Shown piece by piece: positions 5,372-38,316 of a DNA stretch of 64,000 nucleotides. The stretch covers positions 1 to 64,000 of the IMG/VR virus record IMGVR_UViG_3300013286_000009, one strand, 5' to 3'. A program made the position numbers and the translations under genes. Position 1 is the first letter of the stretch, and every line of letters begins with the position of its first letter. The notes below the pieces were generated by a model that was given only the letters and a program-made list of their open reading frames with translations, had not been told where the DNA came from and searched no databases. The stretch comes from a virus.

Positions 5372-5390
5372 ATTGGCTTCCATCATGTAT

Positions 5391-13448: not shown

Positions 13449-13477
13449 AGTATATAACAGTTTTATTACAATGTCAA
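13449..13477 (-). promoter_or_regulatory. sigma70-type early promoter
   Basis: TTGACA-17 nt-TATACT on the minus strand upstream of dNMP kinase. Confidence 0.85.
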
Positions 13478-14072: not shown

Positions 14073-14101
14073 AGTATATTGTTGTTTGACTAGAATGTCA
14101 A
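14073..14101 (-). promoter_or_regulatory. sigma70-type early promoter
   Basis: TTGACA-17 nt-TATACT on the minus strand; a TTGAC/GTCAA inverted repeat (14086-14101) overlaps the -35. Confidence 0.85.
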
Positions 14102-16108: not shown

Positions 16109-17559
16109 TGCAATATTTTTACGATGGGCAAATTCGCAGATACTTGGTACAGACTATCAGACTGTTCAGTAATTTTACAGTCAAATACGGCGACGGCACA
16201 CTACATCAGATTCCAGTTAGCTATGGAGACCCGGATCGACAAGCGGCCGCTATCACTAGACAAAATAGTGAAAATGCTATTCAAAGTGTGCCGCGTATAG
16301 CTGTGCATATTAAAGATTTGCAATTAGATCGTACTAGATTAGCCGATGCAACTTATGTTGGAAAAGTACATTTACGTGAACGCGACACATATACTGATCC
16401 AGTAACAGGTAATCTAACTTACAGTGATGGTCAAGGTAAAAATTATACTGTTGAGCGTTTAATGCCGACACCATTTAAATTAACCTTAAGCGTTGATATC
16501 TGGTCAAGCAGTACCGAACAAAAATTACAAATACTTGAACAAATACTAGTTCTGTTTAATCCCAGTTTGGAAATACAAACGACTGACAACTATATCGATT
16601 GGACCAGTTTAAGTGTACTAGATTTAACGCAAGTACTATGGTCAAGTAGACAAGTACCGGTTGGTACAAATGATGCCATAGATCTAGCTACACTAACTTT
16701 AGAAGCGCCTGTGTGGATAAGTCCTCCTGCTAAGGTGAAAAATCTTGGTGTCATTGCCACTATTATTACTAGCATTTACGGAGCGGTAGGTGGTGACCCA
16801 GTAAATCAATATATAGAAGGGCTTGGAGTTGACATCATGGGAAATGACCCTACCATGAGCGATTTACTCAGTACACAATATACTACAAATACTGGAAATT
16901 TTGGAGTATTGCTACTAAACAGTACTGCTCAGATATTAAATCCTGGTAGTAATGTTAGCGCATCAAATGATAGTTTAACTGTTCCAGTTAATTTAAGTGT
17001 TCCTATCAATTGGCAGGACTTTTTAGCAGGTTGCAACGGTAGTTACCTAGCAGGTTCGAGTAAAATATATTTTAGACAAGCTACTGGATTTGAAGTGGGC
17101 GGAACTTTCACAATAAATTCATTGGATAATACCACTATTATAATAGTACTAGACTCGTCTACATATCCGAGCAACAGTATGCTCGCACCTTCCAGCGGTA
17201 ATAATAGGGCTAACGGATCCAGTGCAGGTACATTTGATGCTATTATTAATCCCATGACTGTATATCCTGGAAATGGTATGAGTAATTTACATGCAGGGGA
17301 TAGATTTTTAATTATAGAAGACATCGGCGCTATTGGAAATACTACACAAGCATGGGGCAACTTTGTAGCCAAAGCAAATGATATAATTGAATGGAGTGGT
17401 TCTGCATGGACTATTGTGTTTGATTATACTCAGAATTCCAACACCCTGCTATATCAAACGAATATATACAGTGGAGTCCAATATAAATGGAACGGCGTAA
17501 GCTGGGTTAAATCGTTTGAGGGCGAGTACGGGGCAGGTTTATGGAGAGTAGCACTCTAA
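16108..17559 (+). CDS. Tail terminator/sheath stabiliser (gp15-like) with C-terminal extension
   Basis: YFYD.QIRRY....I.LF, IPVSYG, P.P.KL....DIW, QILEQILVLFNP. Confidence 0.8.
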   Translation: MQYFYDGQIRRYLVQTIRLFSNFTVKYGDGTLHQIPVSYGDPDRQAAAITRQNSENAIQSVPRIAVHIKDLQLDRTRLADATYVGKVHLRERDTYTDPVTGNLTYSDGQGKNYTVERLMPTPFKLTLSVDIWSSSTEQKLQILEQILVLFNPSLEIQTTDNYIDWTSLSVLDLTQVLWSSRQVPVGTNDAIDLATLTLEAPVWISPPAKVKNLGVIATIITSIYGAVGGDPVNQYIEGLGVDIMGNDPTMSDLLSTQYTTNTGNFGVLLLNSTAQILNPGSNVSASNDSLTVPVNLSVPINWQDFLAGCNGSYLAGSSKIYFRQATGFEVGGTFTINSLDNTTIIIVLDSSTYPSNSMLAPSSGNNRANGSSAGTFDAIINPMTVYPGNGMSNLHAGDRFLIIEDIGAIGNTTQAWGNFVAKANDIIEWSGSAWTIVFDYTQNSNTLLYQTNIYSGVQYKWNGVSWVKSFEGEYGAGLWRVAL

Positions 17560-17990
17560 GAGATAAAATTGTATGTAGTGGCGCATTAATATACGCTAGA
17601 AATACTCATAGGTTTTTACTTTTACAGAAAGCTCGCGGTAAACATCAAGGTACTTGGGGACTAGTAGGCGGAACTACTATAGAGGGTGAAAATCCTTGGC
17701 AAGGTCTCCAGCGCGAAATAGTTGAAGAGATTGGATCTCTTCCTAGCATAATTAAAACAATCCCGCTTGAAACATTTGTCAGTAATGATGCTGTGTTTAA
17801 TTTTCACACGTACTTGTGCTTAGTCGATGACGAATTTGTTCCTGTATTAAGTGACGAACATTGTGCATGGGCTTGGGGAATACTTGACCAATCCCCAAAA
17901 CCTTTACATCAAGGTTTAAAAAATAGTTTTTCAAACAAAGCTATGAGAACAAAATTACAAACAATTTTTGATTTAGTGGATTTAATATGA
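17541..17990 (+). CDS. Nudix hydrolase
   Basis: Nudix box GGTTIEGENPWQGLQREIVEEIG; EH..WAW and PLH. Confidence 0.9.
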   Translation: MESSTLRDKIVCSGALIYARNTHRFLLLQKARGKHQGTWGLVGGTTIEGENPWQGLQREIVEEIGSLPSIIKTIPLETFVSNDAVFNFHTYLCLVDDEFVPVLSDEHCAWAWGILDQSPKPLHQGLKNSFSNKAMRTKLQTIFDLVDLI

Positions 17991-18640
17991 AAATAGAAAC
18001 TAACACCCTTGAAAGGACAATAATTTTACGTATGCGCGGAGTTTTTACTAAAGAACAATGCCGTGAAATTTCTTTTCAAATATTAAAGTACAAAGAAGGT
18101 GGATCGGAGCCGCCCGAATTTAATAGAAATGTTAACTCCGGTTGCTGGATGGGCAGGCCGTTACAATTTAATGGATTTACTCCGGACATAGCTGAATTAA
18201 TTGAAAAAAGATTTCGTATGGCGTGTACTACCTACTACGAAAATCTTCCTAAACCTGAATTTATTTTAACAAACAGTCCTACAAATTTATACGACGAGGA
18301 TTGGACATTATTTTCCTGGGCTAATGTAAATAACCCGGGAGCTGAAAACAGAGAACATACCCATACCGGAAATATTGTAAGTGGTGTAGCATATTTTCAA
18401 TCTCAGGGTACTGGTATGCTAGAATTTATGCCTTACAATTACACTTACAAGATGTCACACCCAGCATGGCCCTATTATGGTGTTGCTGAGTACGAGCCCG
18501 GGGACGGGGATATTTTATTATTTCCTAGTTTTTTATTGCACAGAGTAAAGCCAAACCCAAGCGAGCATCAGCGTATTAACATGTCATTTGATGCTAAACT
18601 AGTGCCAGAAATGCAACTAAGGCACTATGCCGATAAGTAA
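17987..18640 (+). CDS. 2OG-Fe(II) oxygenase-fold protein (TIGR02466-like)
   Basis: WANVN...EHTH...SGVAYF, LFPSFLLHRV.PN, RINMSFD. Confidence 0.85.
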   Translation: MKIETNTLERTIILRMRGVFTKEQCREISFQILKYKEGGSEPPEFNRNVNSGCWMGRPLQFNGFTPDIAELIEKRFRMACTTYYENLPKPEFILTNSPTNLYDEDWTLFSWANVNNPGAENREHTHTGNIVSGVAYFQSQGTGMLEFMPYNYTYKMSHPAWPYYGVAEYEPGDGDILLFPSFLLHRVKPNPSEHQRINMSFDAKLVPEMQLRHYADK

Positions 18641-18672
18641 ATATTGTCTCAAAGCATAATTAAGGAGAAACG

Positions 18673-20635
<1,963 letters not shown>

Positions 20636-20649
20636 AAAAGCTCACCCGT

Positions 20650-20679
20650 AAAAAAAGGCAGGATCATCCTGCCTTTTTT
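20650..20679. terminator. Bidirectional intrinsic terminator
   Basis: AAAAAAGGCAGGAT-C-ATCCTGCCTTTTTT between convergent genes. Confidence 0.9.
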
Positions 20680-20690
20680 ATTGATTTAAA

Positions 20691-21128
20691 TTATGCTGGT
20701 TTAGTCGGCCATTCGATATCATACGGAAAATTAGCTTGTTTACTAATATTTCTTAATGCATCTCGGTAGCCAGACCAAGCAGTTTTTTGACTGTCTGATA
20801 GCTTGGATTGTCCGATAGCTGTTTCAGTATAATCACTTCTTAACAATAAATCGTCACGAGTGGTGCGGGCATCTTTCTCTAATTCTGCCTGTTCTTTAGG
20901 TTCGGTGACAAACCATTCGCCAGTACCGTGATGAGTGTCGCCGTGTGCGCCGCTTTTTATCGATTCATAAACATCTTTAGAAAATTGCAGTCCAGATGTT
21001 GGAGAAGCCAAAAAATTACATGGGACTGATCCGCCCTTTAATTGAATTTTACACCAGAATTGTTCGACTCCGGTAACAAACGAAATCATTGTAATCTCTT
21101 GAATGTCGTTTAATGTGAATTGCTTCAT
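20691..21128 (-). CDS. Tail fibre assembly chaperone
   Basis: C-terminal R..RD.LL..SD...W..YR.ALR.I..Q..FP..I.WP.KP signature. Confidence 0.85.
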   Translation of the reverse strand: MKQFTLNDIQEITMISFVTGVEQFWCKIQLKGGSVPCNFLASPTSGLQFSKDVYESIKSGAHGDTHHGTGEWFVTEPKEQAELEKDARTTRDDLLLRSDYTETAIGQSKLSDSQKTAWSGYRDALRNISKQANFPYDIEWPTKPA

Positions 21129-21157
21129 TGCATAACCCCTTAATATACTCTTATAGA

Positions 21158-21754
21158 CTATTTATGCCTAAAACCTATCCCCGGACGCTTATCAAATGCA
21201 TATTCTGGGTAATAAGGCCCATTCTTGTCAATATAATGAAAAAATGCCTGAACTTGATAGCTACTGTTGTCAGAAACGAACGGATCTCTCCAATGCTCTA
21301 CTTCGCATCCTCTATAAATTATTAAATCGCCCGGCTGTTGTTGTATCATGTTATTTTCTCCCACATACATACCCCAATTATATTCAAAGTTTGGAGGATT
21401 TACATAATCCAAACCCATACAGATTGTGGTACTAATTTCACAACTAGGCCTATCTGTATGTTTTGTAAGAATCATGCCCGGATGATATACTCGGTAATAT
21501 GTGTATGTAGGACACAGTGTTAGACCTGTATGTTTTTCCATATGTGGAAGCATGAATGTCATTAGTGTTTCCATCAATGTATCACCGTATACAGACTGTG
21601 CATTTTCTACTTGAGCATGTTCGCCTGTTTCTGGCGTGAACTCGTATTGCTCTTTTAACAAAGCATATCGAGTAACGATCCTGCAAATATCTGTTGGTAT
21701 GATAGATTTGACACTAACATATTTGTTTATTTTAAAAAATTCAGGATTTGTCAT
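21158..21754 (-). CDS. 2OG-Fe(II) oxygenase
   Basis: YYRVY..G..L.KHTDR.SCEIS.T, GD.IIY.G..VEHWR, Q.FFHY. Confidence 0.85.
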   Translation of the reverse strand: MTNPEFFKINKYVSVKSIIPTDICRIVTRYALLKEQYEFTPETGEHAQVENAQSVYGDTLMETLMTFMLPHMEKHTGLTLCPTYTYYRVYHPGMILTKHTDRPSCEISTTICMGLDYVNPPNFEYNWGMYVGENNMIQQQPGDLIIYRGCEVEHWRDPFVSDNSSYQVQAFFHYIDKNGPYYPEYAFDKRPGIGFRHK

Positions 21755-22539
21755 TTAAATGGTGCTCCTAGATTCCATGCTACTAAGCTATAGCGTGTGC
21801 CTTTTGTTACTGGAGTAACTTGATGGTGTATATGTGAAGGGAATACCACTACAGACCCTTTTGGTCTTATTTCATTACAAGTATGATATCGATCGGGTCT
21901 ATGTGGCCCAAGATCAAACCTTAATTTTCCGCCGGTATAATCTTTACCATCGTTAAGACTTATAGTCACACTTAATTTTCTTGTTTTTCCAACCATTTTT
22001 GTGTTACCCGTTCGCCATTGTTCCTCGGGCATAGGATTTCCAGTTTGATCTACAAATATTGTACCGTCTGTATTTTTGTGAACTGGGTGTATTGTTGGAT
22101 CAAATGCTTCATACGGACGTTCGCTACAGTCAGTATGCCATCCGTAAAACTGTCCTGGAGTATATTTTGTGAATTGAAAATCCTCAGTAAAATCCCAATC
22201 AAAATTCCAGCTGGCTTTAGTGTTAGCCTCTCTAACGAACGGCCATACTATATCGAACAGCGATGAATTATTTAAAAAAACAACATTAGAATCTCTAACA
22301 TACAAGTTTTCTAGATCCGACTTTGCGTGTATTAATCCGCTTACTGTTTTATCACCAACCGGTACACCTCCTTTTAACGAACTTTTTTCACGCCAGCCTC
22401 CGGTAGTACCGGAAATAGCATCTTCACCATATTTAGATTGAGTATCGTGCATAGCACTAATACCCAGCTCTAATATTTGATCGCAAATTTCAGGAGGTAT
22501 TGCTGATTTAAAAAACCAATAATAATACTGAAGTATCAC
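21751..22539 (-). CDS. Prolyl-4-hydroxylase/PKHD-type 2OG-Fe(II) oxygenase
   Basis: QFTKY..GQFYGWHTD, RKLSVTISL, Y.GG, FPS..HHQVTPVTKGTRYSLV.W; GTG start overlaps the upstream TGA. Confidence 0.9.
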   Translation of the reverse strand: MILQYYYWFFKSAIPPEICDQILELGISAMHDTQSKYGEDAISGTTGGWREKSSLKGGVPVGDKTVSGLIHAKSDLENLYVRDSNVVFLNNSSLFDIVWPFVREANTKASWNFDWDFTEDFQFTKYTPGQFYGWHTDCSERPYEAFDPTIHPVHKNTDGTIFVDQTGNPMPEEQWRTGNTKMVGKTRKLSVTISLNDGKDYTGGKLRFDLGPHRPDRYHTCNEIRPKGSVVVFPSHIHHQVTPVTKGTRYSLVAWNLGAPFK

Positions 22540-23150
22540 CTAAACAATGCTCCGTGTACATGCCCGATTATGAAATGTGCTGTTCCTTTCTTCATTGGTG
22601 CAATTCGATAAGGGATAAAGGAAGGAAAAATAAGACAGCATCCCTGGTCGTTAACACCAGCTTGGGAAGTATCAATATTTAAAAACTCAACTTGGCCGCC
22701 TTCATACTCTGCAGGGTCCGTAAGATTGATAATAAAAGTCAATTTGCGCGAAGGTGCTACTGGTGTCATTTCGATATGCCAATTATAATAATCTTTTTCA
22801 GTATACTTGAAAACTTGGGGATAATCTTGATCTATAATACCTAACAAATTAAAATCATATACTGAATCGTTAGCATTTTTTGTAACATCACGGATATCCA
22901 TAAAAGGAAATCCTTCAACGTTGCCCCTTAGTTTTTGTCTTGTAGATTTATGCAAATCAACAGAACCTATCACTTTAGAAGGTAACCACAATTCTTCAAT
23001 GCAGTTTTTTAATACTTGTTCGCATTGATCTTTGGAAAATAATTCTGATTTGTTAATGGATGTAATTTCTAAACTAGCAATTTTAGTAGTCATTGCTGCC
23101 GCCGCATCGGTAAAACTGCTGTCGATAGATCCTAATTCTTCTGTTGCCAT
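22536..23150 (-). CDS. P4H-fold paralog with a degenerate active site
   Basis: KY...YYNWHIE, RKLTFIINL and YEGG retained, but FPSFIPYRIAPMKKGTAHF lacks the distal His and the 2OG-binding Arg. Confidence 0.75.
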   Translation of the reverse strand: MATEELGSIDSSFTDAAAAMTTKIASLEITSINKSELFSKDQCEQVLKNCIEELWLPSKVIGSVDLHKSTRQKLRGNVEGFPFMDIRDVTKNANDSVYDFNLLGIIDQDYPQVFKYTEKDYYNWHIEMTPVAPSRKLTFIINLTDPAEYEGGQVEFLNIDTSQAGVNDQGCCLIFPSFIPYRIAPMKKGTAHFIIGHVHGALFR

Positions 23151-23181
23151 AGTATGGGTCCTTGTATGGTTATTTTGTATG

Positions 23182-23261
23182 TACTTATCTTAAAGATATC
23201 GATGAATTTAAAGTTTTGGCGGTTCAAGTCTGCTGACCGCACGATAGAATTATTGTAAATA
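23182..23261. promoter_or_regulatory. Divergent late motifs (TAAGTA minus at 23182-23187; TAAATA plus at 23256-23261)
   Basis: Each motif is followed by an SD-like AAGGA(G) and a start codon. Confidence 0.5.
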
Positions 23262-23285
23262 TTGGGACAAGGAGAACTGTTTTTA

Positions 23286-23885
23286 ATGGGTTGGCTAGAA
23301 GATAACACCATGCATTCGCCGGTAACTATATACAAATCCGAGCACACATTTATAGAAACTGTGGTGTCGGGTTCTCGTTTTCCTTGGTTCTGGCAAGGGC
23401 AACAAACGTTCAACGATGCCAAGGAAAATGCGGCCTTGCCAAAAGATATGAAATATTTTAACGGGCCTTATCTTAGTCATATATTGTTACACAGGACTGA
23501 AGTAGAAGAAATCAGCCATTTAACAAGAATCGCAAAAGATTCTAGTGAACATTATGAATTCTTTATAGAAATTTTTCATAGATGGATGGTTGAACAGGGA
23601 TTAAAATATACTAAAATTTTCAGGGCAAATCTTAATCTCACATGGCATAACGGCAATTTGCATACAGAACCACATTTGGATCATGCATGGCCCCATAATA
23701 ATTTTGTAATGTATTTGGATACTTGCGAAGGAGCTGAAACATTACTATGGGATGACAAATTTGAACAAATGTTCGCAATACCCTGTGTTAGTTACACCGC
23801 TGTTACATTTAAATCTTGCTGGCATGCACATAGATATCCTGCTATTGGAAAACGTCGACTAATATTAGTGATTACATACGCATGA
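23286..23885 (+). CDS. 2OG-Fe(II) oxygenase-fold protein
   Basis: FPW.W, RANLNL, PHLD, VMYL, HAH..P, RRLILVITY; start chosen at ATG 23286 after AAGGAG (23310 is possible). Confidence 0.75.
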   Translation: MGWLEDNTMHSPVTIYKSEHTFIETVVSGSRFPWFWQGQQTFNDAKENAALPKDMKYFNGPYLSHILLHRTEVEEISHLTRIAKDSSEHYEFFIEIFHRWMVEQGLKYTKIFRANLNLTWHNGNLHTEPHLDHAWPHNNFVMYLDTCEGAETLLWDDKFEQMFAIPCVSYTAVTFKSCWHAHRYPAIGKRRLILVITYA

Positions 23886-23886
23886 C

Positions 23887-23940
23887 AGATATCCGGCGCC
23901 AAAACAGCGTAGAGTTGTGTTTGTAGTTACATATATATAG
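23887..23940 (+). pseudogene. Relic alternative 3' end of the upstream oxygenase
   Basis: Translates to RYPAPKQRRVVFVVTYI*, compared with the gene end RYPAIGKRRLILVITYA* (23832-23885). Confidence 0.8.
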
Positions 23941-23961
23941 TAAACATAAAATAGGAATCGT

Positions 23962-25518
23962 ATGAAAATAGTAATTGTTGGCGGAGGTACTGCTGGGTGG
24001 ACTACGGCAGTTTTAATGTCTAGCAGATGGCCTACACATCAGATTACCGTCATTGAATCTACTAAGATAGGAGTTATTGGGGTGGGAGAAAGTACCACCG
24101 GATTCTTAACAGACATACTTACCAATTACGGTCAGGATCTAGATATGGATCACGACGAATTTATTGCGGAAACAGGCGCAACTTTAAAGTATTCCATCAA
24201 ACACAAGGGATGGACTAACGATATAGACGACTTTTATCACGGGCCGATAGACGGTACCACTACTAAGGAAAGTACCCCAGATGTTGCTTTTGCATACGCT
24301 TTGAAATACCTGCAATCTAAACAACGACCTAATGCATCAGAATGCGGGTGGTTAATAACTTCTGGTAAATCTAATTTTAACAAACACACAAATACATTTG
24401 ACAATTATCGACATGCTATGCACGTCGATGCACATTTAGTCGGAAAATATTTTAAAAAGAAAGCGTTATGCAGATCTAATGCCTCTCATGTAGATTCAGA
24501 AGTTGTTAAAACTAATCTTGATGAAAAAGGATACATTAAATCCGTTAGATTAACTGATGGTTCTGAGGTAGCCGGTGATTTTTTTATAGATTGTACTGGA
24601 TTTTCTAAAATGTTGATGAAAGAAATGCCCGGTAACGGATGGGAAAGTTATCAAAAAAATCTCCCTTTAAATACCGGATTGCCATTCCAATTAAAATACT
24701 TAGATGATGAGATGCCAGAGCCGTTTACAACAGCTTGGGCTCAAAAGAACGGATGGATGTGGCAAATACCACTCATGGATCGCAAAGGATGTGGTTATGT
24801 ATTTTGTGATGCATTTACTACTCCAGATAAAGCACAAGAAGAAATTGAGACTATTTTAAAAAGACCAATAGAACCTATTAAAGTTATTAAATTTGATACT
24901 GGTAGACAAAAATCATCATGGATTAATAACTGTGTAACTATAGGGCTGTCTTCGGCCTTTTTAGAACCACTAGAAGCTACCAGTATTCATACTACTATTG
25001 TACAAGCAAGAATACTAGCATTTGAATTTATTAAACATACTCTTGAAGATACTATAAATCCTGGAAGTATTAACATATACAATCAAAGAACAAGACGTAT
25101 ATTCGACGATGTTAAAGATTTCTTAGTAATGCACTATATGGGTGGTAGGAATGATTCAGAATTTTGGAAATATATTGAAACTGGTGCAACTAAAACCCCG
25201 TATGTCAACGATTTACTGCTCATGGCTCAGAACAAATTGCCTACTGTAAATGATTTTCCACAATATCTTGGCTCGGCCGGTTGGGCACTGTACAGCTATG
25301 TTATGGCTGGAATAAATCGAATAGATATATCAAAGATGGATGGCGAATTAAATCTAGAAACCCCTGGCGGGAATTTAGAATTTATAGCTAGAGAATTTCA
25401 TTATGATTTCCAAGATCAGATGAAAAGAAAATATCAGGATTGCGCCAGCTATGATGACTTCATAAGACATTTCAGGGCAATTAGACACAAACACGGTTTT
25501 TCAGATCTTAAACCTTAA
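23962..25518 (+). CDS. Flavin-dependent halogenase, tryptophan halogenase family (1)
   Basis: GGGTAG, IGVGEST, GATLK (PrnA K79 position), FIDCTGF, WMWQIP, FLEPLEATSI. Confidence 0.9.
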   Translation: MKIVIVGGGTAGWTTAVLMSSRWPTHQITVIESTKIGVIGVGESTTGFLTDILTNYGQDLDMDHDEFIAETGATLKYSIKHKGWTNDIDDFYHGPIDGTTTKESTPDVAFAYALKYLQSKQRPNASECGWLITSGKSNFNKHTNTFDNYRHAMHVDAHLVGKYFKKKALCRSNASHVDSEVVKTNLDEKGYIKSVRLTDGSEVAGDFFIDCTGFSKMLMKEMPGNGWESYQKNLPLNTGLPFQLKYLDDEMPEPFTTAWAQKNGWMWQIPLMDRKGCGYVFCDAFTTPDKAQEEIETILKRPIEPIKVIKFDTGRQKSSWINNCVTIGLSSAFLEPLEATSIHTTIVQARILAFEFIKHTLEDTINPGSINIYNQRTRRIFDDVKDFLVMHYMGGRNDSEFWKYIETGATKTPYVNDLLLMAQNKLPTVNDFPQYLGSAGWALYSYVMAGINRIDISKMDGELNLETPGGNLEFIAREFHYDFQDQMKRKYQDCASYDDFIRHFRAIRHKHGFSDLKP

Positions 25519-26136
25519 TTAGAAAAAATTAAAGGATAGGCTTACTCTAAGATCGTCTTCATCTTCTGTAAGATTAGATTCAACATAGTGTGCTAAATGC
25601 CCGGGAAATAATAATAACATTCCTTCTTTGGGTTTAAATGAATATTGTGTCCATAGTCTGCTGTTATTAATATCTTTTCCTTGCTTTTCTAATTGTTGGC
25701 TAATGAAATTCATGCGGTCTACTTCTATTACCGATCTAGTAAACACGATGTTGCCGCTATTAGCCGGTACCTTAAGATAATAAACACCGCTTAGAAAAGC
25801 ATTATGATGAGTGTGTTCTCTGTTGTATGTATGGCGTGGATTGGCATTATACCAGTATGCAACAGTATCCATTTCTGAAGGTAATTCCCATGCAGATTTT
25901 ATACGTTTAGCAGACGGAATTATATAATTTTGAAATAATCGATCAGTTGCCCAGTTATCGTAATTAGGAGAATACATCGCCGGAGATTGCCAACCTCCTA
26001 AATTGCTCTTTTGCACACTAGGAGTAGTTGGTATTAATTGTTTTATGGCATCAAGAATAGGCGGATTGATCACCGGATCTAAATAAGTACTAAAACAAGA
26101 TGATACAAACAATAAATTTTCTTTTAGCTCTGCCAT
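25519..26136 (-). CDS. 2OG-Fe(II) oxygenase-fold protein (TIGR02466-like)
   Basis: SN.GGWQS, EHTH...LSGVYYL, FPGHLAHYV..N, RVSLSFNF. Confidence 0.88.
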   Translation of the reverse strand: MAELKENLLFVSSCFSTYLDPVINPPILDAIKQLIPTTPSVQKSNLGGWQSPAMYSPNYDNWATDRLFQNYIIPSAKRIKSAWELPSEMDTVAYWYNANPRHTYNREHTHHNAFLSGVYYLKVPANSGNIVFTRSVIEVDRMNFISQQLEKQGKDINNSRLWTQYSFKPKEGMLLLFPGHLAHYVESNLTEDEDDLRVSLSFNFF

Positions 26137-26141
26137 GTAGA

Positions 26142-26153
26142 TATTTATAAATG
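26142..26153. promoter_or_regulatory. Overlapping divergent late promoters
   Basis: TATAAATA on minus (26142-26149) and TATAAATG on plus (26146-26153) share the palindrome ATTTATAAAT. Confidence 0.65.
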
Positions 26154-26175
26154 CACATTTAACACGGAATCATTC

Positions 26176-27645
26176 ATGAAACAACTTAAAAAACTATCAG
26201 TGATAGGGGGCGGAACAGCTGGATTTGTTGCCGCTTTAATTCTTAAACAAAGATTTCCACTTATGGAAATTGAATTAGTTAGATCTAAAAAGATAGGTAT
26301 TATAGGTGTCGGTGAAGGTAGTACTGAACACTGGAATGAATTCCTCACATATATTGGAGTTAAATGGCAAGCTGTTATTCAGCACTGCGATGCTACGTTT
26401 AAATGCGGTATTATGTTTCGTGGGTGGGCAGATGAGGACTATATGCATAGCATCGGGCCAGAAAATGATGTTAAGAATGGACAATATCCTACCATCTATG
26501 GCAAATACATAGCAGAAGGTGCTGCCAACAGATTCTTTAATCCTAATTTAACGTGGGATAACAAGCTATACGCAAACTTTTTAAAGCCTGAGACATCTTC
26601 TCCCTACAATCAATATCATTTTAATACTCAAAAATTGAATGATTTCCTTACCATGATTGCCATACACAAAGGCATAACAGTTACCGATGATGAAATAGTC
26701 GATATTATCCTTAACGAACAAGGCGAAATAGAAGAGCTTGTTGGAGAAACAAGCTCTTATAAATCTGATTTTTACATAGATAGTACCGGTTTTAAAAGAT
26801 TATTGATATCTAAACTAGGAGCAAAGTGGTGCAGTTATAGCCAGTATCTTAAAATGAAAGCCGCTATTGTATTTCCTATAGGGGATACAGAAGAATACAA
26901 TATATGGACCACAGCACAAGCTATGGATTACGGTTGGATGTTTAAAATTCCAGTATGGGGACGTAGTGGCAACGGGTATATTTTTGATAGTGATTATATT
27001 ACTGCGGAACAGGCGCAAGAAGAAGTTGAAAAATTCCTCGGACATAAGATAGAAGTAGGTAAACATTTGACATTTGATCCGGGTGCCTTAGATAACGTAT
27101 GGATTAAAAATTGTTGCGCTGTTGGACTTAGTTCTAGTTTTGTAGAACCATTAGAAGCTACGAGTATTGGAACTAGTATACAACAAGTTTTTAAATTAAT
27201 GCATCGTATTCCAAATTATAACGAAGATACTATAGAAGAATATAATAAAGATATTAGTGATATGTTAACTAACATCAGAGATTTTGTTATTTTGCATTAT
27301 GTTACAAACAAATCAAATACACAATTTTGGAAAGATGTAGCTAATATTAAATTGCCAGACGAATTAGAACGTAATATTAAAAAATGGCGTAAAAATTTAC
27401 CCATAGCAGAAGATTTTCAAGGCAAGTCTGCTTATATTTTATTTAGAGATGCTCATTACTTACAAGTATTAGCTGGATTAAAATTGTTTGACCAGCAAAG
27501 CATACGTGCTGAATACGACATGATGAATCCAGCTGTTAAAAAAATAGCAGAAGATTTTATTAGAGAGACTAAAACTGCTGAAAAACGTGATCCAGTTATA
27601 GGTCACAAAGAATTTATTACAAAATTACGTAATACAAAATACTAA
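26176..27645 (+). CDS. Flavin-dependent halogenase, tryptophan halogenase family (2)
   Basis: GGGTAG, IGVGEGST, DATFK, YIDSTGF, WMFKIP, FVEPLEATSI. Confidence 0.9.
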   Translation: MKQLKKLSVIGGGTAGFVAALILKQRFPLMEIELVRSKKIGIIGVGEGSTEHWNEFLTYIGVKWQAVIQHCDATFKCGIMFRGWADEDYMHSIGPENDVKNGQYPTIYGKYIAEGAANRFFNPNLTWDNKLYANFLKPETSSPYNQYHFNTQKLNDFLTMIAIHKGITVTDDEIVDIILNEQGEIEELVGETSSYKSDFYIDSTGFKRLLISKLGAKWCSYSQYLKMKAAIVFPIGDTEEYNIWTTAQAMDYGWMFKIPVWGRSGNGYIFDSDYITAEQAQEEVEKFLGHKIEVGKHLTFDPGALDNVWIKNCCAVGLSSSFVEPLEATSIGTSIQQVFKLMHRIPNYNEDTIEEYNKDISDMLTNIRDFVILHYVTNKSNTQFWKDVANIKLPDELERNIKKWRKNLPIAEDFQGKSAYILFRDAHYLQVLAGLKLFDQQSIRAEYDMMNPAVKKIAEDFIRETKTAEKRDPVIGHKEFITKLRNTKY

Positions 27646-28227
27646 TCAGCTGAAATTCATTGCTATTGATATGCGGGGAGTAATATTCTTCCCAGGTTCT
27701 ACCATGTGTCTAAGCCAGGATCTGAATATTAAAAGTTTTGCAGGTTCTGGAGCATAAGATATACGGGTAAAGCTAAGTGTATTTTTCTTTTTAATTTTCT
27801 TAAGGCCAAACATATCAGGTTCTAGTGGGCTTTCAAATATGATACGCCCGGCATTTTCTGGAGCAGCCATATAAAAAACTGCACTAAAAATAGACCCGTT
27901 ATGTGTATGAAATTCTTGCCAACCCTTGTCATCAGATATGTTTAACCAAGCAGAATCATTTTTATATGTTCCTTCGCAATTATGTAACGATGCGAATTCA
28001 TTAACATGATCTGTAATTAAATCTAACAACGGTTTAAATACCGGATCGTTAGTTAAATCATGAGTACCGTGTGTATTATATGTACCACCTAACCATTCTG
28101 CTCCTCCAGTTGGAGTTTTATCTTTGATGATAAAAGAATGTTCTATAAGGTTTGCATTTTCTTCTGCGGATATAAGATTTTCTTCTACATAAATGCATGT
28201 AGGAAACCACATTTCAACTTTGCCCAT
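27646..28227 (-). CDS. 2OG-Fe(II) oxygenase-fold protein (TIGR02466-like)
   Basis: WLN...QEFHTH...SAVFY, IFRSWLRHMV, RISIAMNF. Confidence 0.88.
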   Translation of the reverse strand: MGKVEMWFPTCIYVEENLISAEENANLIEHSFIIKDKTPTGGAEWLGGTYNTHGTHDLTNDPVFKPLLDLITDHVNEFASLHNCEGTYKNDSAWLNISDDKGWQEFHTHNGSIFSAVFYMAAPENAGRIIFESPLEPDMFGLKKIKKKNTLSFTRISYAPEPAKLLIFRSWLRHMVEPGKNITPRISIAMNFS

Positions 28228-28831
28228 TTGGTCCTGCCCATATATTAAATGAAATTGCTATGCGATTCTTATCAGATTTATTAACAGTTACTGAATGATT
28301 TAACCAGGATTCAAATAATATAATTTCTCCTTTTACTGGCGTATGATTAACACTGTAAAAATTATAACCGTTATCTTCTTTTTTTAAAGTATTAAAAAAT
28401 ACATCTGTTACTCGCCTAGTTTCTATAGGATTAAAAAATACTATATCACCGCTGTCTTCTGGTACTTGCAAATAATAACAACCGCTTATTAATGCTCCGT
28501 AATGATCATGCCTATTAAAATCAGCACCCGGCGGGTATAACTGTAACCAGGACGTTATATCCAACAAACATTCGCGATCAAACCCTAATAATTCTAAAAA
28601 TTTTCTAGCTTCTGAATTAATTACCTCTATCATAGGAAAATCTTTAATTTTTCCTAAGAAATTTTTATCTGTTTGATAATAAGTTGTTAATAATTGTTTA
28701 GGATCTCGGGATTCTTCAAAGCATTTAGATTCGTCGATGTAGTCGTATACTAATCCTAAAGAATTAGCTACTAATTCTGGATCAACGGTTGTTGTTACTA
28801 TAGGAATTGGAAATATATGATCTATCTTCAT
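28214..28831 (-). CDS. 2OG-Fe(II) oxygenase-fold protein (TIGR02466-like)
   Basis: RHDH...ISGCYYL, LFESWLNHSV..N, RIAISFN. Confidence 0.88.
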   Translation of the reverse strand: MKIDHIFPIPIVTTTVDPELVANSLGLVYDYIDESKCFEESRDPKQLLTTYYQTDKNFLGKIKDFPMIEVINSEARKFLELLGFDRECLLDITSWLQLYPPGADFNRHDHYGALISGCYYLQVPEDSGDIVFFNPIETRRVTDVFFNTLKKEDNGYNFYSVNHTPVKGEIILFESWLNHSVTVNKSDKNRIAISFNIWAGPNGQS

Positions 28832-29433
28832 AATGGTTCTAGATTTATATTTAATATCACCCGTCTACTGGATTGTATAGGATTGCTAGCAGTATGGTAT
28901 TGTAAACCATTTATCCATACAAGTCGATTGGCTTTAGGATGTACTCGGGTGCGGGTGGTAAACTTGTCATATCCAATGCCATTACTACCTGGTACAGGGA
29001 TAAACGTTTGATCAAATATTCTAGTATCACCGTCGCAGTCGTTAAAATAAAATATCAATGTTTCGTGTGGTCGAAAATAATCAACATGTGGTAAGTTATA
29101 ATTTTCTTCTGTATAATTTATTCTAGGATGTTTCATACTGCATCTTGCACGTATCAAATGTCTTTCTGTAAAATTTAAGGTTGCAAGTTTTTTAAAAAAT
29201 GGCATGAATAAATCGTATGTAAAACTTTTTACGTCGTATGTTTTATCATAAATTACATGATTGAATCCATCCGTTTCAACTGCTAATAAATCTTTTACTA
29301 CATTATCTTCAGGAGCCAATGACACATGTTCAGAATAAAACCATGGAAATTTTTCCGATAATACAGCCGCGGCCAATGGTTGAAATTGTTCCGCAGGCAA
29401 AAAATCATCTATTATTTTTAATCGATCTGTCAT
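28828..29433 (-). CDS. 2OG-Fe(II) oxygenase-fold protein
   Basis: IIDDFLP, FPWFY, PHVD, IFYFND.DGDT, PKANRLV...G..YHT, RRVILNIN. Confidence 0.85.
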   Translation of the reverse strand: MTDRLKIIDDFLPAEQFQPLAAAVLSEKFPWFYSEHVSLAPEDNVVKDLLAVETDGFNHVIYDKTYDVKSFTYDLFMPFFKKLATLNFTERHLIRARCSMKHPRINYTEENYNLPHVDYFRPHETLIFYFNDCDGDTRIFDQTFIPVPGSNGIGYDKFTTRTRVHPKANRLVWINGLQYHTASNPIQSSRRVILNINLEPL

Positions 29434-29990
29434 TATATTACATCAAAATTAATAATGCATCTTACATCTTGTAAAGGTTGTTCAGCTGTATGATAGTACT
29501 TACCATTAAAAATAACAGCTCGTCCTTGTTTTGGAGTTATCCTATGTATGATATTGTAATCTTGTACCTTAGCATCAAATTCTTCAATTGCTCCATGGCG
29601 CTGTTTATCCACTATGATAGTATCTCCATCACTGTCTGTTACATAATATAATATTACTAAATGATCATATGTTAAATCTATGTGTAAATTATCAACTTGT
29701 TTTAAATTTTTTGATGGAAATTGCATAAAACTGCGACACTGTACTACATCGTTGTATCTAAAATTTATAGCATCGCATCCAATATATGCTAATGGTGCTA
29801 ACATATTATAAAAACTGCTTACAGTTTCTTTGCGATCTCTGTATAAATGAGCTAGCGCAGGAGTGTGTGTACTGGCCAAATTTCCAAATGTAATATCTGG
29901 AGTGAAATACCAGGGAAATGCAGGACCCATTAGTGTTTGTTTAATCTGTTCTTGATAAGTTTTTGGTATAAAATCGTCTATTATCTTCAT
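29433..29990 (-). CDS. 2OG-Fe(II) oxygenase-fold protein (paralog of 28828-29433)
   Basis: IIDDFIP, FPWYF, LHID, LYYV.DSDGDT, PKQGRAVIF.G..YHT, RCIINFD. Confidence 0.85.
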   Translation of the reverse strand: MKIIDDFIPKTYQEQIKQTLMGPAFPWYFTPDITFGNLASTHTPALAHLYRDRKETVSSFYNMLAPLAYIGCDAINFRYNDVVQCRSFMQFPSKNLKQVDNLHIDLTYDHLVILYYVTDSDGDTIIVDKQRHGAIEEFDAKVQDYNIIHRITPKQGRAVIFNGKYYHTAEQPLQDVRCIINFDVI

Positions 29991-29996
29991 GTTGGA

Positions 29997-30039
29997 TATT
30001 TATAGAAATTTTCTACGGTACCAAAAAAAACAATAAGTA
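29997..30039. promoter_or_regulatory. Divergent late motifs
   Basis: TATAAATA on minus at 29997-30004; TAAGTA on plus at 30034-30039, followed by GGAG and ATG 30064. Confidence 0.6.
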
Positions 30040-30063
30040 CTGATAGACGGAGCAATTAAACGA

Positions 30064-31530
30064 ATGAAAGTACAATCATTAACAATAGTAGGCGGAGGTA
30101 CTAGCGGTTGGCTAGCGGCCGCATATCTTTATAAAAATCAACCCGACATAAAAATAACGGTTATTGATAAAGAAGTAGGCACTCCTGTAGGTGTAGGAGA
30201 GGCGACACTGCTGTCATTCCGACCATTCCTAGACGAATGCGGAATACCTATAGAAGAATGGATTGTTCCCTTAGATGCTGGCTATAAATCTGGTATATTG
30301 TTTACTAATTGGCGAGAAGACGGCGATGATATATGGCATCCTTTTCAAAAAGGAAATAGAGAAATCATGGGAGAGATCAAAACTCATGATCTATGGAGCC
30401 GTAACCAACATCTAGATTTCAAAGAATATGCTTTAGATTTTTACTCGTCTTCTATAGATCATAATTCCGTCGATGTTATTAACATTGAAAACTATGCCAG
30501 TCATGTTGACTGTGGGAAATTAGTATTATTTTTACAGGATAGACTTAAAGATAAAATCGATATTATACGTTCAGACGTTGTTAGTGTTGTAAACAACGCT
30601 CAAGGAATTGACTATCTAGAATTAAAAGACGGTTCTAAAATTAAAAGCGATTTGTATGTGGATTGTACCGGGTTTAAGAACGTACTAAGAACACCTGCAA
30701 AAAGAATCAACTTGGAAGATAGACTATTTGTTAATACCGCATTGGCACATCCAGTACAATACCAAGACCGGTCTACTGAATTTAAACCACACGCCGTATG
30801 TGAAGCAGTAGAACATGGCTGGATATGGAAGATCGGTGTTGCCAGTCGTATCGGCACCGGACTAGTGTTTAATCGAAACATAACTACCGTAGAAGATGCT
30901 AAAGATTCTTTTGTTGCACACTGGAGTGATCGTATAAAGAAAGAAAACATTCGTGTAATTGACTGGTCTCCTTTTTACATAGAAGATCAATGGAGTGGCA
31001 ATGTAGTTAATATTGGATTAAGCGCAGGATTTATCGAACCGTTAGAAAGTACAGGCATTGCGCTAATCACTATCGGTATAACACAATTGCATAATGCATT
31101 AAATGAAAGATACTATACTGATATAAATCGAGATTATTATAATCTACAGATGAAAACATTGTTTGAAGATTGCATAGATTTTGTCAGTATGCACTATGCT
31201 AACAATCGCAGGCCTGGAAAATTCTGGGACCATGTGCGTAATACTTTTAAACCTTCGGAAAGAATGTTGCATCAGATAGACGAATTAGCTGATCCTAACA
31301 TAGTAGTACCTCGAAATTCTAAACATAATTATATGTTTGGAGGAAGTAACTGGATGTTGATGCTATATCAACTAGGATATACTTTGGCGCCACGCAATAT
31401 GTCAATCCCAGATGAAGTAGCTCTTGAAAAATTAGTAAAAAACTATAAAGAATATGCTAAGAATAGGCATGTATGGAGCAGGCATCACAGTACAGAAATA
31501 GATAGAATTCACGAGATTAGAAAACTATGA
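30064..31530 (+). CDS. Flavin-dependent halogenase, tryptophan halogenase family (3)
   Basis: GGGTSG, VGVGEAT, DAGYK, YVDCTGF, WIWKIG, FIEPLESTG. Confidence 0.9.
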   Translation: MKVQSLTIVGGGTSGWLAAAYLYKNQPDIKITVIDKEVGTPVGVGEATLLSFRPFLDECGIPIEEWIVPLDAGYKSGILFTNWREDGDDIWHPFQKGNREIMGEIKTHDLWSRNQHLDFKEYALDFYSSSIDHNSVDVINIENYASHVDCGKLVLFLQDRLKDKIDIIRSDVVSVVNNAQGIDYLELKDGSKIKSDLYVDCTGFKNVLRTPAKRINLEDRLFVNTALAHPVQYQDRSTEFKPHAVCEAVEHGWIWKIGVASRIGTGLVFNRNITTVEDAKDSFVAHWSDRIKKENIRVIDWSPFYIEDQWSGNVVNIGLSAGFIEPLESTGIALITIGITQLHNALNERYYTDINRDYYNLQMKTLFEDCIDFVSMHYANNRRPGKFWDHVRNTFKPSERMLHQIDELADPNIVVPRNSKHNYMFGGSNWMLMLYQLGYTLAPRNMSIPDEVALEKLVKNYKEYAKNRHVWSRHHSTEIDRIHEIRKL

Positions 31531-32270
31531 GAGAAATACGTTGGTCGTTTAGCACAAGTTGCGAATGGTTCGTTGATCATGCGTCGTCAATAGAGCATTT
31601 GGTACAGGACTACGATCCTTTTACTAGTCTGACTAAAGATGTTATGGCTGAACGTAAAGGAGCAGTGTTTACCAAATGTCCTGCACATACTGATTTTATC
31701 AAAAATACATTTATCATACGTGCTCCGTTTGATCTTACTATCAATAGCAAGATAGATCCTGTTACTAATGACGGTGAATTGTGGTGCGACAACCTCACAC
31801 AGGAACAATTTAAACAGATAATAGACACTAGATTTTTATTTAATAATGAACGCGGTATTAATCCGTGGCCTATTATTGGCATCGATTGGTTATACTGTTT
31901 TACTTCTGACGTTTCTACTATATTGCAAATAATGCCGGCATTCATGCACAGAAATCAATTTGTAGAAAAAACAATTATGGTTCCCGGGCAGTTTGATATT
32001 AGCAAATGGGTGCGTAATGTAGAAACAGCTTTTGAAGTAAGAGGCAACAACGAACGTATCGAGATAAAGAAAGGTGATGCCATTATGTATGCCAAATTTT
32101 TATGCGATGAACCTGTAAGATTAGTACAAGAATCTATTCCTTGGGAGGAGATGTATGTGTGTAACGAGATAAAAAGTAAAGATCGCAACAGGCCTCTGCA
32201 GAACCGTTACGAAGAATATGCCAAAGTACGTGCGGCAAAGTGTCCATATCCACATGACAAACAAGATTAA
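31527..32270 (+). CDS. Hypothetical protein (KCPA...IRAPFDL type, predicted beta-rich)
   Basis: 247-aa ORF overlapping halogenases 3 and 4 at both ends. Confidence 0.6.
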   Translation: MREIRWSFSTSCEWFVDHASSIEHLVQDYDPFTSLTKDVMAERKGAVFTKCPAHTDFIKNTFIIRAPFDLTINSKIDPVTNDGELWCDNLTQEQFKQIIDTRFLFNNERGINPWPIIGIDWLYCFTSDVSTILQIMPAFMHRNQFVEKTIMVPGQFDISKWVRNVETAFEVRGNNERIEIKKGDAIMYAKFLCDEPVRLVQESIPWEEMYVCNEIKSKDRNRPLQNRYEEYAKVRAAKCPYPHDKQD

Positions 32271-33819
32271 TTCCATTATCGTAGTAGGCGGTGGCAGTGC
32301 AGGCTGGATTACAGCGGCATCATTGATCACACAACTTAAAGATGTCAAGGTAACTGTGATTGAAAGTCCTAACATACCCACTGTAGGTGTGGGAGAAAGC
32401 ACAGTAGGCGGAATACGTGCTTGGTTGCGCATGGTGGGTATAGTAGATCGCGACTTTATGAAAGCTACCGATGCCAGCTACAAGATTGCTATTAAATTCA
32501 ATAATTTCTATGAAAAAGATCAAGGCACTTGGTATTATCCATTTGGTCGACCACTGCTGGAAGATAATTTGCATGGAAGAGATGATTGGTTTATTAAGAA
32601 ATCTCTATACCCAAAAACTCCTAGTCACGATTATGTAGACTGCTATTATCCGCAAATGGCACTGGTTAATTCTAATAAGATCATGATGAACAACGGTGAC
32701 CTTGATAATTTTAATTTTTATAACGACACTGCTTTTCATTTTGATGCGGCTAAACTAGGTATTTGGTTGCGAGATCATCACTGTAAACCTAAAGGTGTAA
32801 GTCACATACCTGCTGAAGTACAAGAAATAAAAGTAGATGAAACCGGTATACAATATCTCACATTAGATAGCGGTGCAAATATATCTGCTGACTTGTATAT
32901 AGACTGTACTGGATTTAAAAGTTTGCTGTTGGGAGAGGCATTGGCAGAACCATTCGTAAGTTACGAACATTTGCTACCTAACAATCGTGCTTGGGCTACT
33001 AGAATTCCTTATACCGATAAAGAAACACAACTGACCAATGTAACTGAATGCACTGCAACGGATAACGGTTGGGTATGGAACATACCTTTATGGAGTCGTA
33101 TTGGAACTGGCTATGTTTACAGTGACAAATATCTTACTCCTGAACAGGCAAAAAATGATTTTATTAACTATTTGTCAGCACAAGGACATCCCGTAGAAGA
33201 TCTAGAATTCCGTGATATTAAGATGCGTGTGGGTAAACATAAGAGACTATGGGTTAAAAATTGTGTAGCTCTGGGTCTTAGTGCGGCATTTATAGAACCT
33301 TTAGAATCAACAGGATTATTAACTACACATGATTTTGCTAGATCATTATGCGATATGTTGGTAAGAGATTCAATTAGCCAATGGGATAGAGATGAGTTCA
33401 ATCTTAAATGCGAAGATGAATTTAATTACTGGGCTCAATTTGTTTCCATGCATTACGCTCTAAGCCAAAGAAATGACAGTAAATATTGGCAAGATATTAA
33501 TAATAAATCCTATCTGGATTTAATGCCTGCTGTTAATAGACTAGGAACACAAAGTCTATATCATCATTCTATCTATTCAAAAAACTTTAATAAATTTTTT
33601 CAAGACGATGACGGAGTTAATTGTTTGGCAGCTGGAATGAATTGGAATCCCCAAACATCTGTAAATCTCAATACTATATTTGCTGTTGGTACTGATTTAC
33701 ACGAAGATTTTAGTCTAATGGTTGATAAATTAGAAGACAGAAAAGAAAGATGGAAAAGGGCTGTAGCAACAGCCCCTAGTCTTTATCAATATCTAAAAGA
33801 TAATTTTTATAAAGATTAA
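32254..33819 (+). CDS. Flavin-dependent halogenase, tryptophan halogenase family (4)
   Basis: Start MTNKINS; GGGSAGW, VGVGEST, DASYK, YIDCTGF, WVWNIP, FIEPLESTG. Confidence 0.92.
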   Translation: MTNKINSIIVVGGGSAGWITAASLITQLKDVKVTVIESPNIPTVGVGESTVGGIRAWLRMVGIVDRDFMKATDASYKIAIKFNNFYEKDQGTWYYPFGRPLLEDNLHGRDDWFIKKSLYPKTPSHDYVDCYYPQMALVNSNKIMMNNGDLDNFNFYNDTAFHFDAAKLGIWLRDHHCKPKGVSHIPAEVQEIKVDETGIQYLTLDSGANISADLYIDCTGFKSLLLGEALAEPFVSYEHLLPNNRAWATRIPYTDKETQLTNVTECTATDNGWVWNIPLWSRIGTGYVYSDKYLTPEQAKNDFINYLSAQGHPVEDLEFRDIKMRVGKHKRLWVKNCVALGLSAAFIEPLESTGLLTTHDFARSLCDMLVRDSISQWDRDEFNLKCEDEFNYWAQFVSMHYALSQRNDSKYWQDINNKSYLDLMPAVNRLGTQSLYHHSIYSKNFNKFFQDDDGVNCLAAGMNWNPQTSVNLNTIFAVGTDLHEDFSLMVDKLEDRKERWKRAVATAPSLYQYLKDNFYKD

Positions 33820-36949: not shown

Positions 36950-37177
36950 TTGATGAACAACTCCGCCACCTAACATGCTGATATTATCGCCGCCGGTGCC
37001 TACAGTCCCATGACTATAACCGGTCACTGGACGCCAATTTGTACCGTCCCAATATTCCATTAAATTATAATCAGTATTATAACGCATCATTCCGTTAGCA
37101 GGGCTACCTGGACGCTGTGCAGAATTGCCTTGTGGTAATGTTAGCTCTGTAAATGTAGACGATTGTAGCTGTGCCAT
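36116..37177 (-). CDS. Glycine-rich (polyglycine-II-type) tail/adhesin-like protein A
   Basis: LPQG.SAQRP..P..GMMRYNTD...EYWDG.NW module, Gly-rich domain, C-terminal GGSGIVIVRY. Confidence 0.75.
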   Translation of the reverse strand: MAQLQSSTFTELTLPQGNSAQRPGSPANGMMRYNTDYNLMEYWDGTNWRPVTGYSHGTVGTGGDNISMLGGGVVHQFTSVTSATFTPNFTGYVQVLVVGGGGGANGGWGGGGGGGGLVFNRAYPVSQGVGIPLSVGGGGPSGSGQGGNSTFGSTTAYGGGYSGFWNQNTPGNAGGSGGGGANCDSDGNRMRCFGGAGTTGQGFPGGAGVRYNDDGENTHNGGGGGGAGGPGLASQDSNQKQATHGGPGAASDILGSILYWSGGGASGPHICDGGGGDGGIGGGGAGGAHYSPGTPSVGNGYGGSQALNNGGNASNSDGHSRFGGNGGANTGGGGGAAGSYHGTGGSGIVIVRY

Positions 37178-38293: not shown

Positions 38294-38316
38294 ATTTTAT
38301 CTCTCTTTAATTTCTA

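Follow-up and report, generated by a model that had tools for sequence, protein, structure and literature searches.

A Syn9-type cluster of tandem dioxygenases and flavin halogenases in a hypervariable cassette between the neck and fibre genes of an uncultured freshwater jumbo phage

Introduction

Clusters that combine tandem 2-oxoglutarate (2OG)- and Fe(II)-dependent dioxygenases with flavin halogenases are already known from marine cyanophages, where they were published in 2010. For cyanophage Syn9, Iyer et al. (2010; PMC2938197) list ten tandem dioxygenases, one JmjC/MINA-like and nine classical, falling into at least five families, together with two halogenases of the tryptophan type and a protein with conserved Cys residues and a dUTPase-like fold, and class gp52 and gp54 as 2OG-Fe(II) dioxygenases (2OGFeDOs). 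Here we analyse an island of such enzymes at positions 17987-33819 of a 64,000-nt stretch of viral DNA (hereafter the window), which is the first 64 kb of the 85,596-bp viral contig IMGVR_UViG_3300013286_000009 of IMG/VR.

Several functions have been proposed for these enzymes. The same paper of Iyer et al. (PMC2938197) put forward halogenated secondary-metabolite synthesis for the cyanophage clusters and, for certain bacterial operons, tail-collar/Gly-rich proteins as dioxygenase substrates. A 2OG-linked role in nitrogen stress was proposed for cyanophage 2OG oxygenases by Sullivan et al. (2010), who cite Weigele et al. (2007) for a role in DNA repair, and Clokie et al. (2010; PMC2984593) contains an antibiotic-protection reading.

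Our literature search returned no paper on halogenated or hydroxylated virions. To our knowledge, no natural substrate has been identified for viral flavin halogenases or for the many 2OG oxygenases of cyanophages since both were first noticed in 2005-2010.

Enzymes of the island

The island was securely identified as a Syn9-type tandem dioxygenase/flavin-halogenase cluster situated in a hypervariable neck-to-fibre cassette. It contains the following halogenase genes:

23962-25518, plus strand, flavin-dependent halogenase 1 (PF04820 6e-97; best PDB match 2wet, Trp 5-halogenase)
26176-27645, plus strand, flavin-dependent halogenase 2, WxFxIP variant (PF04820 6e-96; PDB 5lv9)
30064-31530, plus strand, flavin-dependent halogenase 3, WxWxIG variant (PF04820 4e-83; PDB Thal, PrnA)
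32218-33819, plus strand, flavin-dependent halogenase 4, VirX1-like (PF04820 3e-108; 6qgm VirX1 9e-107)

A first-pass annotation, made from the sequence alone, had called four flavin halogenases in 17987-33819, and the PF04820 matches (E 4e-83 to 3e-108) bear this out. Pairwise identity among the four is only 27-32%. In their alignment, G7, G8, G9 and G12 of the FAD-binding GxGxxG motif are invariant in all four, as are K76 and E335/E338; we take these Lys and Glu columns to correspond to the catalytic K79 and E346 of PrnA. WxWxIP is found in halogenases 1 and 4, WMFKIP in halogenase 2 and WIWKIG in halogenase 3. Halogenase 4 matches VirX1 of cyanophage Syn10 (PDB 6qgm) over its full length with the conserved Lys/Glu columns kept, and has 46% identity to the S-B64 halogenase and 37.6% to the Syn10 gene. 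Halogenases 2 and 3 differ from VirX1 by their WxFxIP and WxWxIG variants, and halogenases 1-3 are closer to bacterial Trp 5-, 6- and 7-halogenases than to VirX1. VirX1 halogenates small aromatic compounds in vitro (iodination). No flavin reductase family was matched among those window open reading frames (ORFs) that were scanned with Pfam and PHROG.

The oxygenase candidates, with one paralogue outside the island, are:

17987-18640, plus strand, 2OG-FeII_Oxy_5 oxygenase ox5_a (PF13759 7.5e-16; HxH...H...R kept)
21158-21754, minus strand, fch, Syn9 gp54-family protein ('ferrochelatase' label), probable 2OG dioxygenase (phrog_2954 1e-42; gp54 2e-23)
21751-22539, minus strand, ox3_a, 2OG-FeII_Oxy_3, prolyl-hydroxylase-type (PF13640 9.5e-14; HTD...HHQ; PiuC match weak)
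22536-23150, minus strand, ox3_b, 2OG-FeII_Oxy_3 paralogue (PF13640 5e-6; above cut-off)
23262-23885, plus strand, phrog_274 protein ('DNA endonuclease V' label), double-stranded beta-helix (DSBH) oxygenase paralogue (phrog_274 2e-21)
25519-26136, minus strand, 2OG-FeII_Oxy_5 oxygenase ox5_b (PF13759 1e-19; TATAAATA at 26142-26149)
27646-29990, minus strand, four-gene oxygenase unit (ox3_d, ox3_c, ox5_d, ox5_c), headed by TATAAATA at 29997-30004
13479-14048, minus strand, fifth 2OG-FeII_Oxy_5 paralogue, outside the island (phrog_81 6e-25; PF13759 7e-17; sigma70-like promoter TTGACA-N17-TATACT at 14101-14073)

The first-pass count of ten oxygenase-fold genes is reasonable but has to be graded: six candidates lie above the Pfam cut-off, two below it, one is included by paralogy and one by motif and Syn9 gp54 homology. 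Within the four-gene unit, 27646-28227 and 28214-28831 exceed the PF13759 cut-off (2e-19 and 3e-21), 28828-29433 and 29433-29990 match PF13640 below threshold (E 7e-4 and 2e-3), and phrog_274 is matched at 3e-34 and 1e-36. The metal triad is kept in nine of the ten; the exception is ox3_b, in which, as in its three orthologues, the distal His is absent. HxH...H...R occurs in all five Oxy_5 paralogues, four of them inside the island and one outside it, and HxD...H in ox3_a, ox3_c, ox3_d, 23262-23885 and 21158-21754. The island dioxygenases form at least four mutually distant groups, and of the halogenases and oxygenases together, 13 of 14 have intact catalytic motifs.

Two candidates have no Pfam assignment. 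The gene at 23262-23885 matches no Pfam family at E<=0.01 and is paralogous to 28828-29433 (phmmer 5e-8), with phrog_274 common to both. For 21158-21754, HxD...HWR is invariant across ten homologues; hhalign against the Oxy_3 profile gave 3% probability, and the PDB profile search and Pfam on the ten homologues were empty. We keep it as a probable 2OG dioxygenase on its motif and gp54 homology. For these two genes, the nearest named Atlas cluster was PF13640, at 0.91.

The 'DNA endonuclease V' label looks wrong, because phrog_274 proteins are paralogous to PF13640-matching oxygenases with HxD...H. More generally, the cyanophage RefSeq/PHROG labels 'DNA endonuclease V' (phrog_274), 'ferrochelatase' (phrog_2954) and 'minor coat protein' appear to sit on dioxygenase genes. 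The first two cases are backed by paralogy, motif and Syn9 matches (Syn9 gp51, gp53 and gp54). For 'minor coat protein', gp52 follows the classification of Iyer et al. (PMC2938197), and gp46 only follows from which ten genes seem to be meant there.

Chaperones and other island genes

The remaining features of the island are:

18673-18984, plus strand, GroES (Cpn10) (PF00166 2e-27, positions 2-93 of 93; 62-63% identity in relatives L052 and L073)
18971-20635, plus strand, GroEL (Cpn60) (PF00118 1e-70, positions 2-486 of 490)
20651-20679, plus strand, hairpin resembling a terminator where the GroEL and chaperone genes converge (13-pair stem, then T run)
20691-21128, minus strand, tail-fibre assembly chaperone, Phage_tail_APC (PF16778 6e-15; tail fibre assembly PHROGs)
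31527-32270, plus strand, Cys-motif protein with invariant KCPA (phrog_17480)

GroES, GroEL and a tail-fibre chaperone had been placed inside the island at first pass, and PF00166, PF00118 and PF16778 agree. The full-length Cpn10 and Cpn60 genes form one operon and overlap by 14 nt. GroEL is accessory in this lineage, being present in one of five relative records and absent from the 94%-complete record G003.

The gene at 31527-32270 is not an oxygenase; its nearest Atlas clusters are unnamed or partly DUF6065 (12-44% of members). PDB profile and Pfam searches with it were empty. A KCPA protein of about 245 amino acids (aa) adjoins a halogenase in the window and in three of four relatives (L085:9580-10320; L038:9913-10641; L010:8450-9250; L083:7014-7757).

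The island is organised as 7-8 short units distributed over the two strands. In agreement with the first pass, no nonribosomal peptide synthetase (NRPS), polyketide synthase (PKS) or transporter family was found among the island ORFs scanned with Pfam. A precursor-peptide gene, as in clusters for ribosomally synthesised and post-translationally modified peptides (RiPPs), was not found, the gaps in the island being at most about 110 nt and the sole extra ORF (23132-23422) overlapping its neighbours.

Comparison with described phage systems

Like the Syn9 cluster, the island joins a tandem array of about ten distant 2OG dioxygenases, Trp halogenases and a Cys-motif protein in a position between fibre/fibre-assembly and neck genes. 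Individual proteins match as well: 21158-21754 to gp54; ox3_c, ox3_d and 23262-23885 to gp51 and gp53; the Oxy_5 proteins to gp45, gp48 and gp60; the halogenases to gp41 and gp42; and the second Gly-rich paralogue (gly2) to gp38. The KCPA protein has a weak CP-motif match to Syn9 gp43 (E 0.001) and a different PHROG (17480 vs 7084); from sequence, it may be the counterpart of the Syn9 Cys protein described by Iyer et al. (PMC2938197). Unlike Syn9, with two halogenases, the island has four, it contains GroES, GroEL and a fibre chaperone, its genes lie on both strands, and its carrier is a freshwater jumbo phage. For the JmjC/MINA-type member, no JmjC or Cupin_4 match and no match to Syn9 gp49 was obtained among island ORFs at E<=0.01. 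In both Syn9 and S-RIM44 the enzymes lie between fibre-type and gp13-gp15 neck genes, partly so in HTVC008M, and Gly-rich ORFs also flank the clusters of all three.

Three other systems are partly comparable. The cyanomyovirus g15-g18 hyperplastic region (Millard et al. 2009, as described in Clokie et al. 2010, PMC2984593) is likewise a variable insertion site beside g15 in the structural module; here, by contrast, it is the interval between g15-nudix and the fibre genes that varies, the sheath lying on the opposite side, and the cargo is oxidative tailoring, not carbon metabolism. The bacterial dioxygenase operons of Iyer et al. (PMC2938197) also link dioxygenases to Gly-rich/phage-fibre-like proteins, but carry sulfotransferases and 3'-phosphoadenosine 5'-phosphosulfate (PAPS) synthetases, none of which Pfam detected among the island ORFs. 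The GroEL is a full-length Cpn60 like other phage chaperonins (256 phage records have a GroEL-like gene), whereas it is GroES-paired, lies inside a variable island and has at most 50.5% identity to any record.

Carrier phage and genomic setting

The carrier is a fragment of an uncultured freshwater T4-related jumbo phage. CheckV rated its completeness at 23%, so the whole genome is probably about 350 kb; the relative G003, rated 94% complete, has 345 kb. The DNA was present in freshwater metagenome runs, one of which may be its source; a second run, from another study, contained 93% of the sampled words. TerL shares no more than 50.8% identity with its counterpart in any cultured phage, and PA5oct-type jumbo phages give the best matches. 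The island had no megablast match in a set of 50,697 phage records.

The left flank is T4-like according to Pfam and PHROG scans, with sheath, dNMP kinase and gp13-like genes (minus strand) followed by gp14-like, gp15-like and NUDIX genes (plus strand). Its last two genes are:

16108-17559, plus strand, gp15-like tail sheath stabiliser, conserved left flank (phrog_11196, phrog_227)
17541-17990, plus strand, NUDIX hydrolase, with which the conserved core ends and the variable block follows (phrog_1198 3e-19)

The island had been placed between the gp15-like gene and the Gly-rich/fibre block, which is accurate except that the NUDIX gene intervenes after g15. On the right, the following genes lie next to the island:

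33816-37177, minus strand, three tandem Gly-rich (28-31% Gly) fibre-type paralogues (PF21722; phrog_2295; family hidden Markov model, HMM)
37178-38646, minus strand, fibre protein (371 aa) and 109-aa partner (tail-fibre PHROGs; conserved beside giant fibre genes)
38665-57959, minus strand, two giant fibre proteins (3706 and 2708 aa), right part of the replaced block (ORFs; 48-52% identical in relative G001)

The His content of the Gly-rich paralogues (33816-37177) is 2.3-2.9%, vs 0-0.5% in the other fibre proteins (38665-64751). The Gly-family HMM also matches, over its first ~100 positions (N-terminal domain), several downstream fibre proteins.

Variation across related phages

The gp15-like protein has 325 relatives in IMG/VR. 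For comparison across the lineage, 80 gp15 loci were taken and 20 on longer contigs were extended, giving with the window a 21-record map; tblastn rows below 35-40% query coverage were discarded, with the giant proteins and the sheath exempt from this filter. The sheath-to-nudix core is conserved across loci, with NUDIX directly after g15 in nearly all 80, and the region beyond nudix is hypervariable.

Halogenases were found in 11 of the 21 records, with up to five halogenase-labelled ORFs per record, and were absent from ten. In all 11 halogenase-bearing records mapped, the island lies between nudix/neck and the fibre module, so the linkage to fibre genes seen at first pass extends to relatives. 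The module itself (fibre, 109-aa protein, two giant fibre proteins) is present in every record reaching it. Halogenase presence switches at least six times on the 21-row gp15 tree, and the near-identical gp15 sisters G005 and G016 differ in it. Oxy_5 genes occur in eight of ten relative records.

In a comparison with G001, a 94-99% identical relative, identity is 86-99% in the left flank and 76-94% in the right one, and 17987-57959 is at most 52% identical or absent; the enzyme island and the distal fibres therefore constitute one replaced block. Identity among the fibres is 31-57% whatever that of gp15 or the core, also for the two giant proteins, which have homologues in all relatives; this indicates that the fibre module is itself hypervariable. 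G002 has kept the gene order of the entire island, GroESL and Gly triplet included, at 47-68% identity. Gly-family triplets, scored by the family HMM with matches confined to its first ~100 positions left out (r373/r398/r496-type proteins), were detected in six of 11 halogenase-bearing vs none of ten halogenase-free records (Fisher p 0.012).

The neck-to-fibre region of two relatives, one with halogenases and the other without, encodes a NodU/CmcH-type carbamoyltransferase of about 600 aa (G003, L088:8501-10291; G004, L101:3006-4805) that adjoins unknown proteins of about 310-340 aa. In eight more records, this region has unlabelled ORFs of 558-607 aa.

Transcription signals

The TAAATA/TAAGTA motifs that the first-pass annotation had seen on island, sheath, terL and neck genes alike are too common to inform (64 and 53 occurrences, respectively, in the contig), and only the full TATAAATA is informative. 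We take TATAAATA to be the T4 late consensus, and the label 'late promoter' rests on that consensus. It is depleted in the window (three occurrences vs 9.5 expected), and each of them immediately precedes a gene or unit: the sheath gene, the oxygenase gene 25519-26136 and the four-oxygenase unit 29990->27646. What stands of the shared-motif claim is this full motif ahead of the sheath gene and two oxygenase units; the halogenase-unit promoters match the late consensus only partially. No strong sigma70-like site was found inside the intergenic gaps of the island. Between 12 and 32 kb there are only two (TTGACA-N17-TATACT, 11 of 12), at 13449-13477 and 14073-14101 on the minus strand, preceding the dNMP kinase gene and the fifth Oxy_5 paralogue outside the island. 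Because all three TATAAATA head genes and the strong sigma70-like sites occur only outside the island, part of the island is very probably expressed late. Some of the published cyanophage transcriptome work makes no mention of these genes.

In many late-type genes, ATAAATA or TATAAATA ends 1-6 nt before the ATG with no Shine-Dalgarno sequence, and other genes have clear GGAG-type sites. Genes with such close motifs are 2373-3968, 4823-5386, 5391-5870, 6688-7689, 14942-16108, 25519-26136 and 29433-29990 in the window and 74877-75731 in the contig; given T4-like spacing, they would yield leaderless late mRNAs.

Discussion

We propose that the island enzymes would be made late and would act in series, hydroxylating and halogenating side chains of a substrate for which the island itself does not appear to have a gene. 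Such virion tailoring is circumstantially supported. Our preferred, still tentative candidate substrate, to which we give somewhat less than an even chance, is the set of distal fibre proteins of the phage itself, above all the three neighbouring Gly-rich paralogues. This choice is based on the late motifs, the absence of a scaffold or precursor gene from the island ORFs, the fibre linkage across distant phages, the co-replacement of enzymes and fibres, and the one-sided pattern of Gly triplets. The narrower proposition that the enzymes covalently decorate Gly-rich fibre-tip proteins, hydroxylating and halogenating residues in variable loops, is less likely than not. GroESL and the fibre chaperone would help to fold such fibre clients in this sub-lineage.

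Several observations weigh against a fibre substrate. All four halogenases best match free-substrate halogenases or VirX1, and for each of them 5uao, presumably the peptide halogenase MibH, ranked last among the 30 PDB chains listed. The ten halogenase-free records have nevertheless kept a homologous fibre module, and five of the 11 halogenase islands are without the Gly family. A relatedness-aware test of the link between Gly family and halogenases had three independent pairs (sign test p 0.5-1), and generic ORFs with at least 20% Gly occur in seven of ten halogenase-free vs ten of 11 halogenase-bearing records (p 0.31). With only three independent pairs, the association loses significance when relatedness is taken into account, and we do not claim covariation of the Gly family with halogenases. 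Oxy_5 paralogues lie far from the fibres in G003, the window's own paralogue at 13479-14048 lies outside the island with a sigma70-like promoter, and the single S-B64 halogenase follows gp46/47 in the replication module. A collagen link for the prolyl-hydroxylase-type enzymes was rejected, with one GXY run of five in 20 structural proteins. Adjacency in a recombination hot spot may also yield fibre linkage without shared function. Enzyme chemistry on virions is thus far a prediction from sequence: the first-pass idea of virion-protein decoration gains from position, late motifs and co-replacement, and loses from halogenases nearest to free-substrate enzymes and from the ten of 21 records that lack them.

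Secondary-metabolite chemistry is a strong rival to virion tailoring, in itself possible without being probable. Following Iyer et al. (2010), free amino acids, indoles or host-made peptides would be modified in series in the infected cell, and the resulting halogenated and hydroxylated small molecules would benefit the phage or the host population. Besides being the published reading of the Syn9 cluster (PMC2938197), this would suit VirX1 as the best solved match of halogenase 4 and the grouping of all four halogenases with free-substrate enzymes. The NodU/CmcH-type carbamoyltransferases in the same region of relatives point the same way, and the patchy presence of halogenases, missing from half of the relatives, is typical of accessory metabolism. 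However, Pfam gave no gene for scaffold synthesis, export or resistance in the window island; in the islands of the 11 relatives, ORFs were labelled with window proteins and ten Pfam scans. The late promoters and the position inside the structural module do not favour it either, the benefit of late small-molecule synthesis is hard to see for a lytic jumbo phage, and no natural product is tied to any phage cluster in the literature searched.

Less likely is host take-over, in which the oxygenases would hydroxylate host proteins (translation factors, ribosomal proteins) or drain 2OG, and the halogenases would modify host metabolites or proteins; we regard this as improbable. Characterised PF13640 members include prolyl hydroxylases of cellular proteins, which counts in its favour. 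So do the sigma70-like promoter of one Oxy_5 paralogue, the scattering of Oxy_5 genes in G003 and the 2OG-linked nitrogen-stress proposal of Sullivan et al. (2010). The island units, however, have late-type and not sigma70-like motifs, ten or more divergent paralogues would be excessive for draining 2OG, and the halogenases and fibre linkage would be left unexplained.

Also less likely, at a slim chance, is that a hot spot beside the fibres gathers selfish or weakly selected paralogues without a common pathway. The six or more changes of halogenase presence on the g15 tree, islands that are wholly different between relatives 91-99% identical, and the unrelated metabolic genes of cyanomyovirus hyperplastic regions (PMC2984593) are all consistent with such hitch-hiking; the same family combination nonetheless recurs from marine cyanophages to this lineage, and the synteny of the island in G002 and the intact catalytic motifs also speak against it. 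An AlkB-like repair or base-hydroxylase role on nucleic acids is the least likely, and very improbable, since apart from the DNA-repair suggestion (Weigele et al. 2007, as cited in Sullivan et al. 2010) and the 'DNA endonuclease V' label, phrog_274 proteins have no Pfam family at E<=0.01 except sub-threshold PF13640, and no AlkB or TET/JBP family was matched by Pfam among the island ORFs.

Related loci, 325 in IMG/VR, make this lineage abundant, and its enzyme island shares a replaceable cassette with the distal fibres and has late-type promoters. The Gly-rich triplet offers a concrete candidate substrate for an old open question. If instead small molecules are made, some of the halogenated metabolites in lakes and oceans would come from phages. 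Modification of virions would amount to a new kind of virus-particle chemistry. If Gly-rich fibre-tip proteins are decorated, no earlier case of enzymatic halogenation or hydroxylation on a virus particle would precede it; it would give viral flavin halogenases their long-sought natural substrate and the phage a swappable cassette of enzymes and adhesins tuning its host range.

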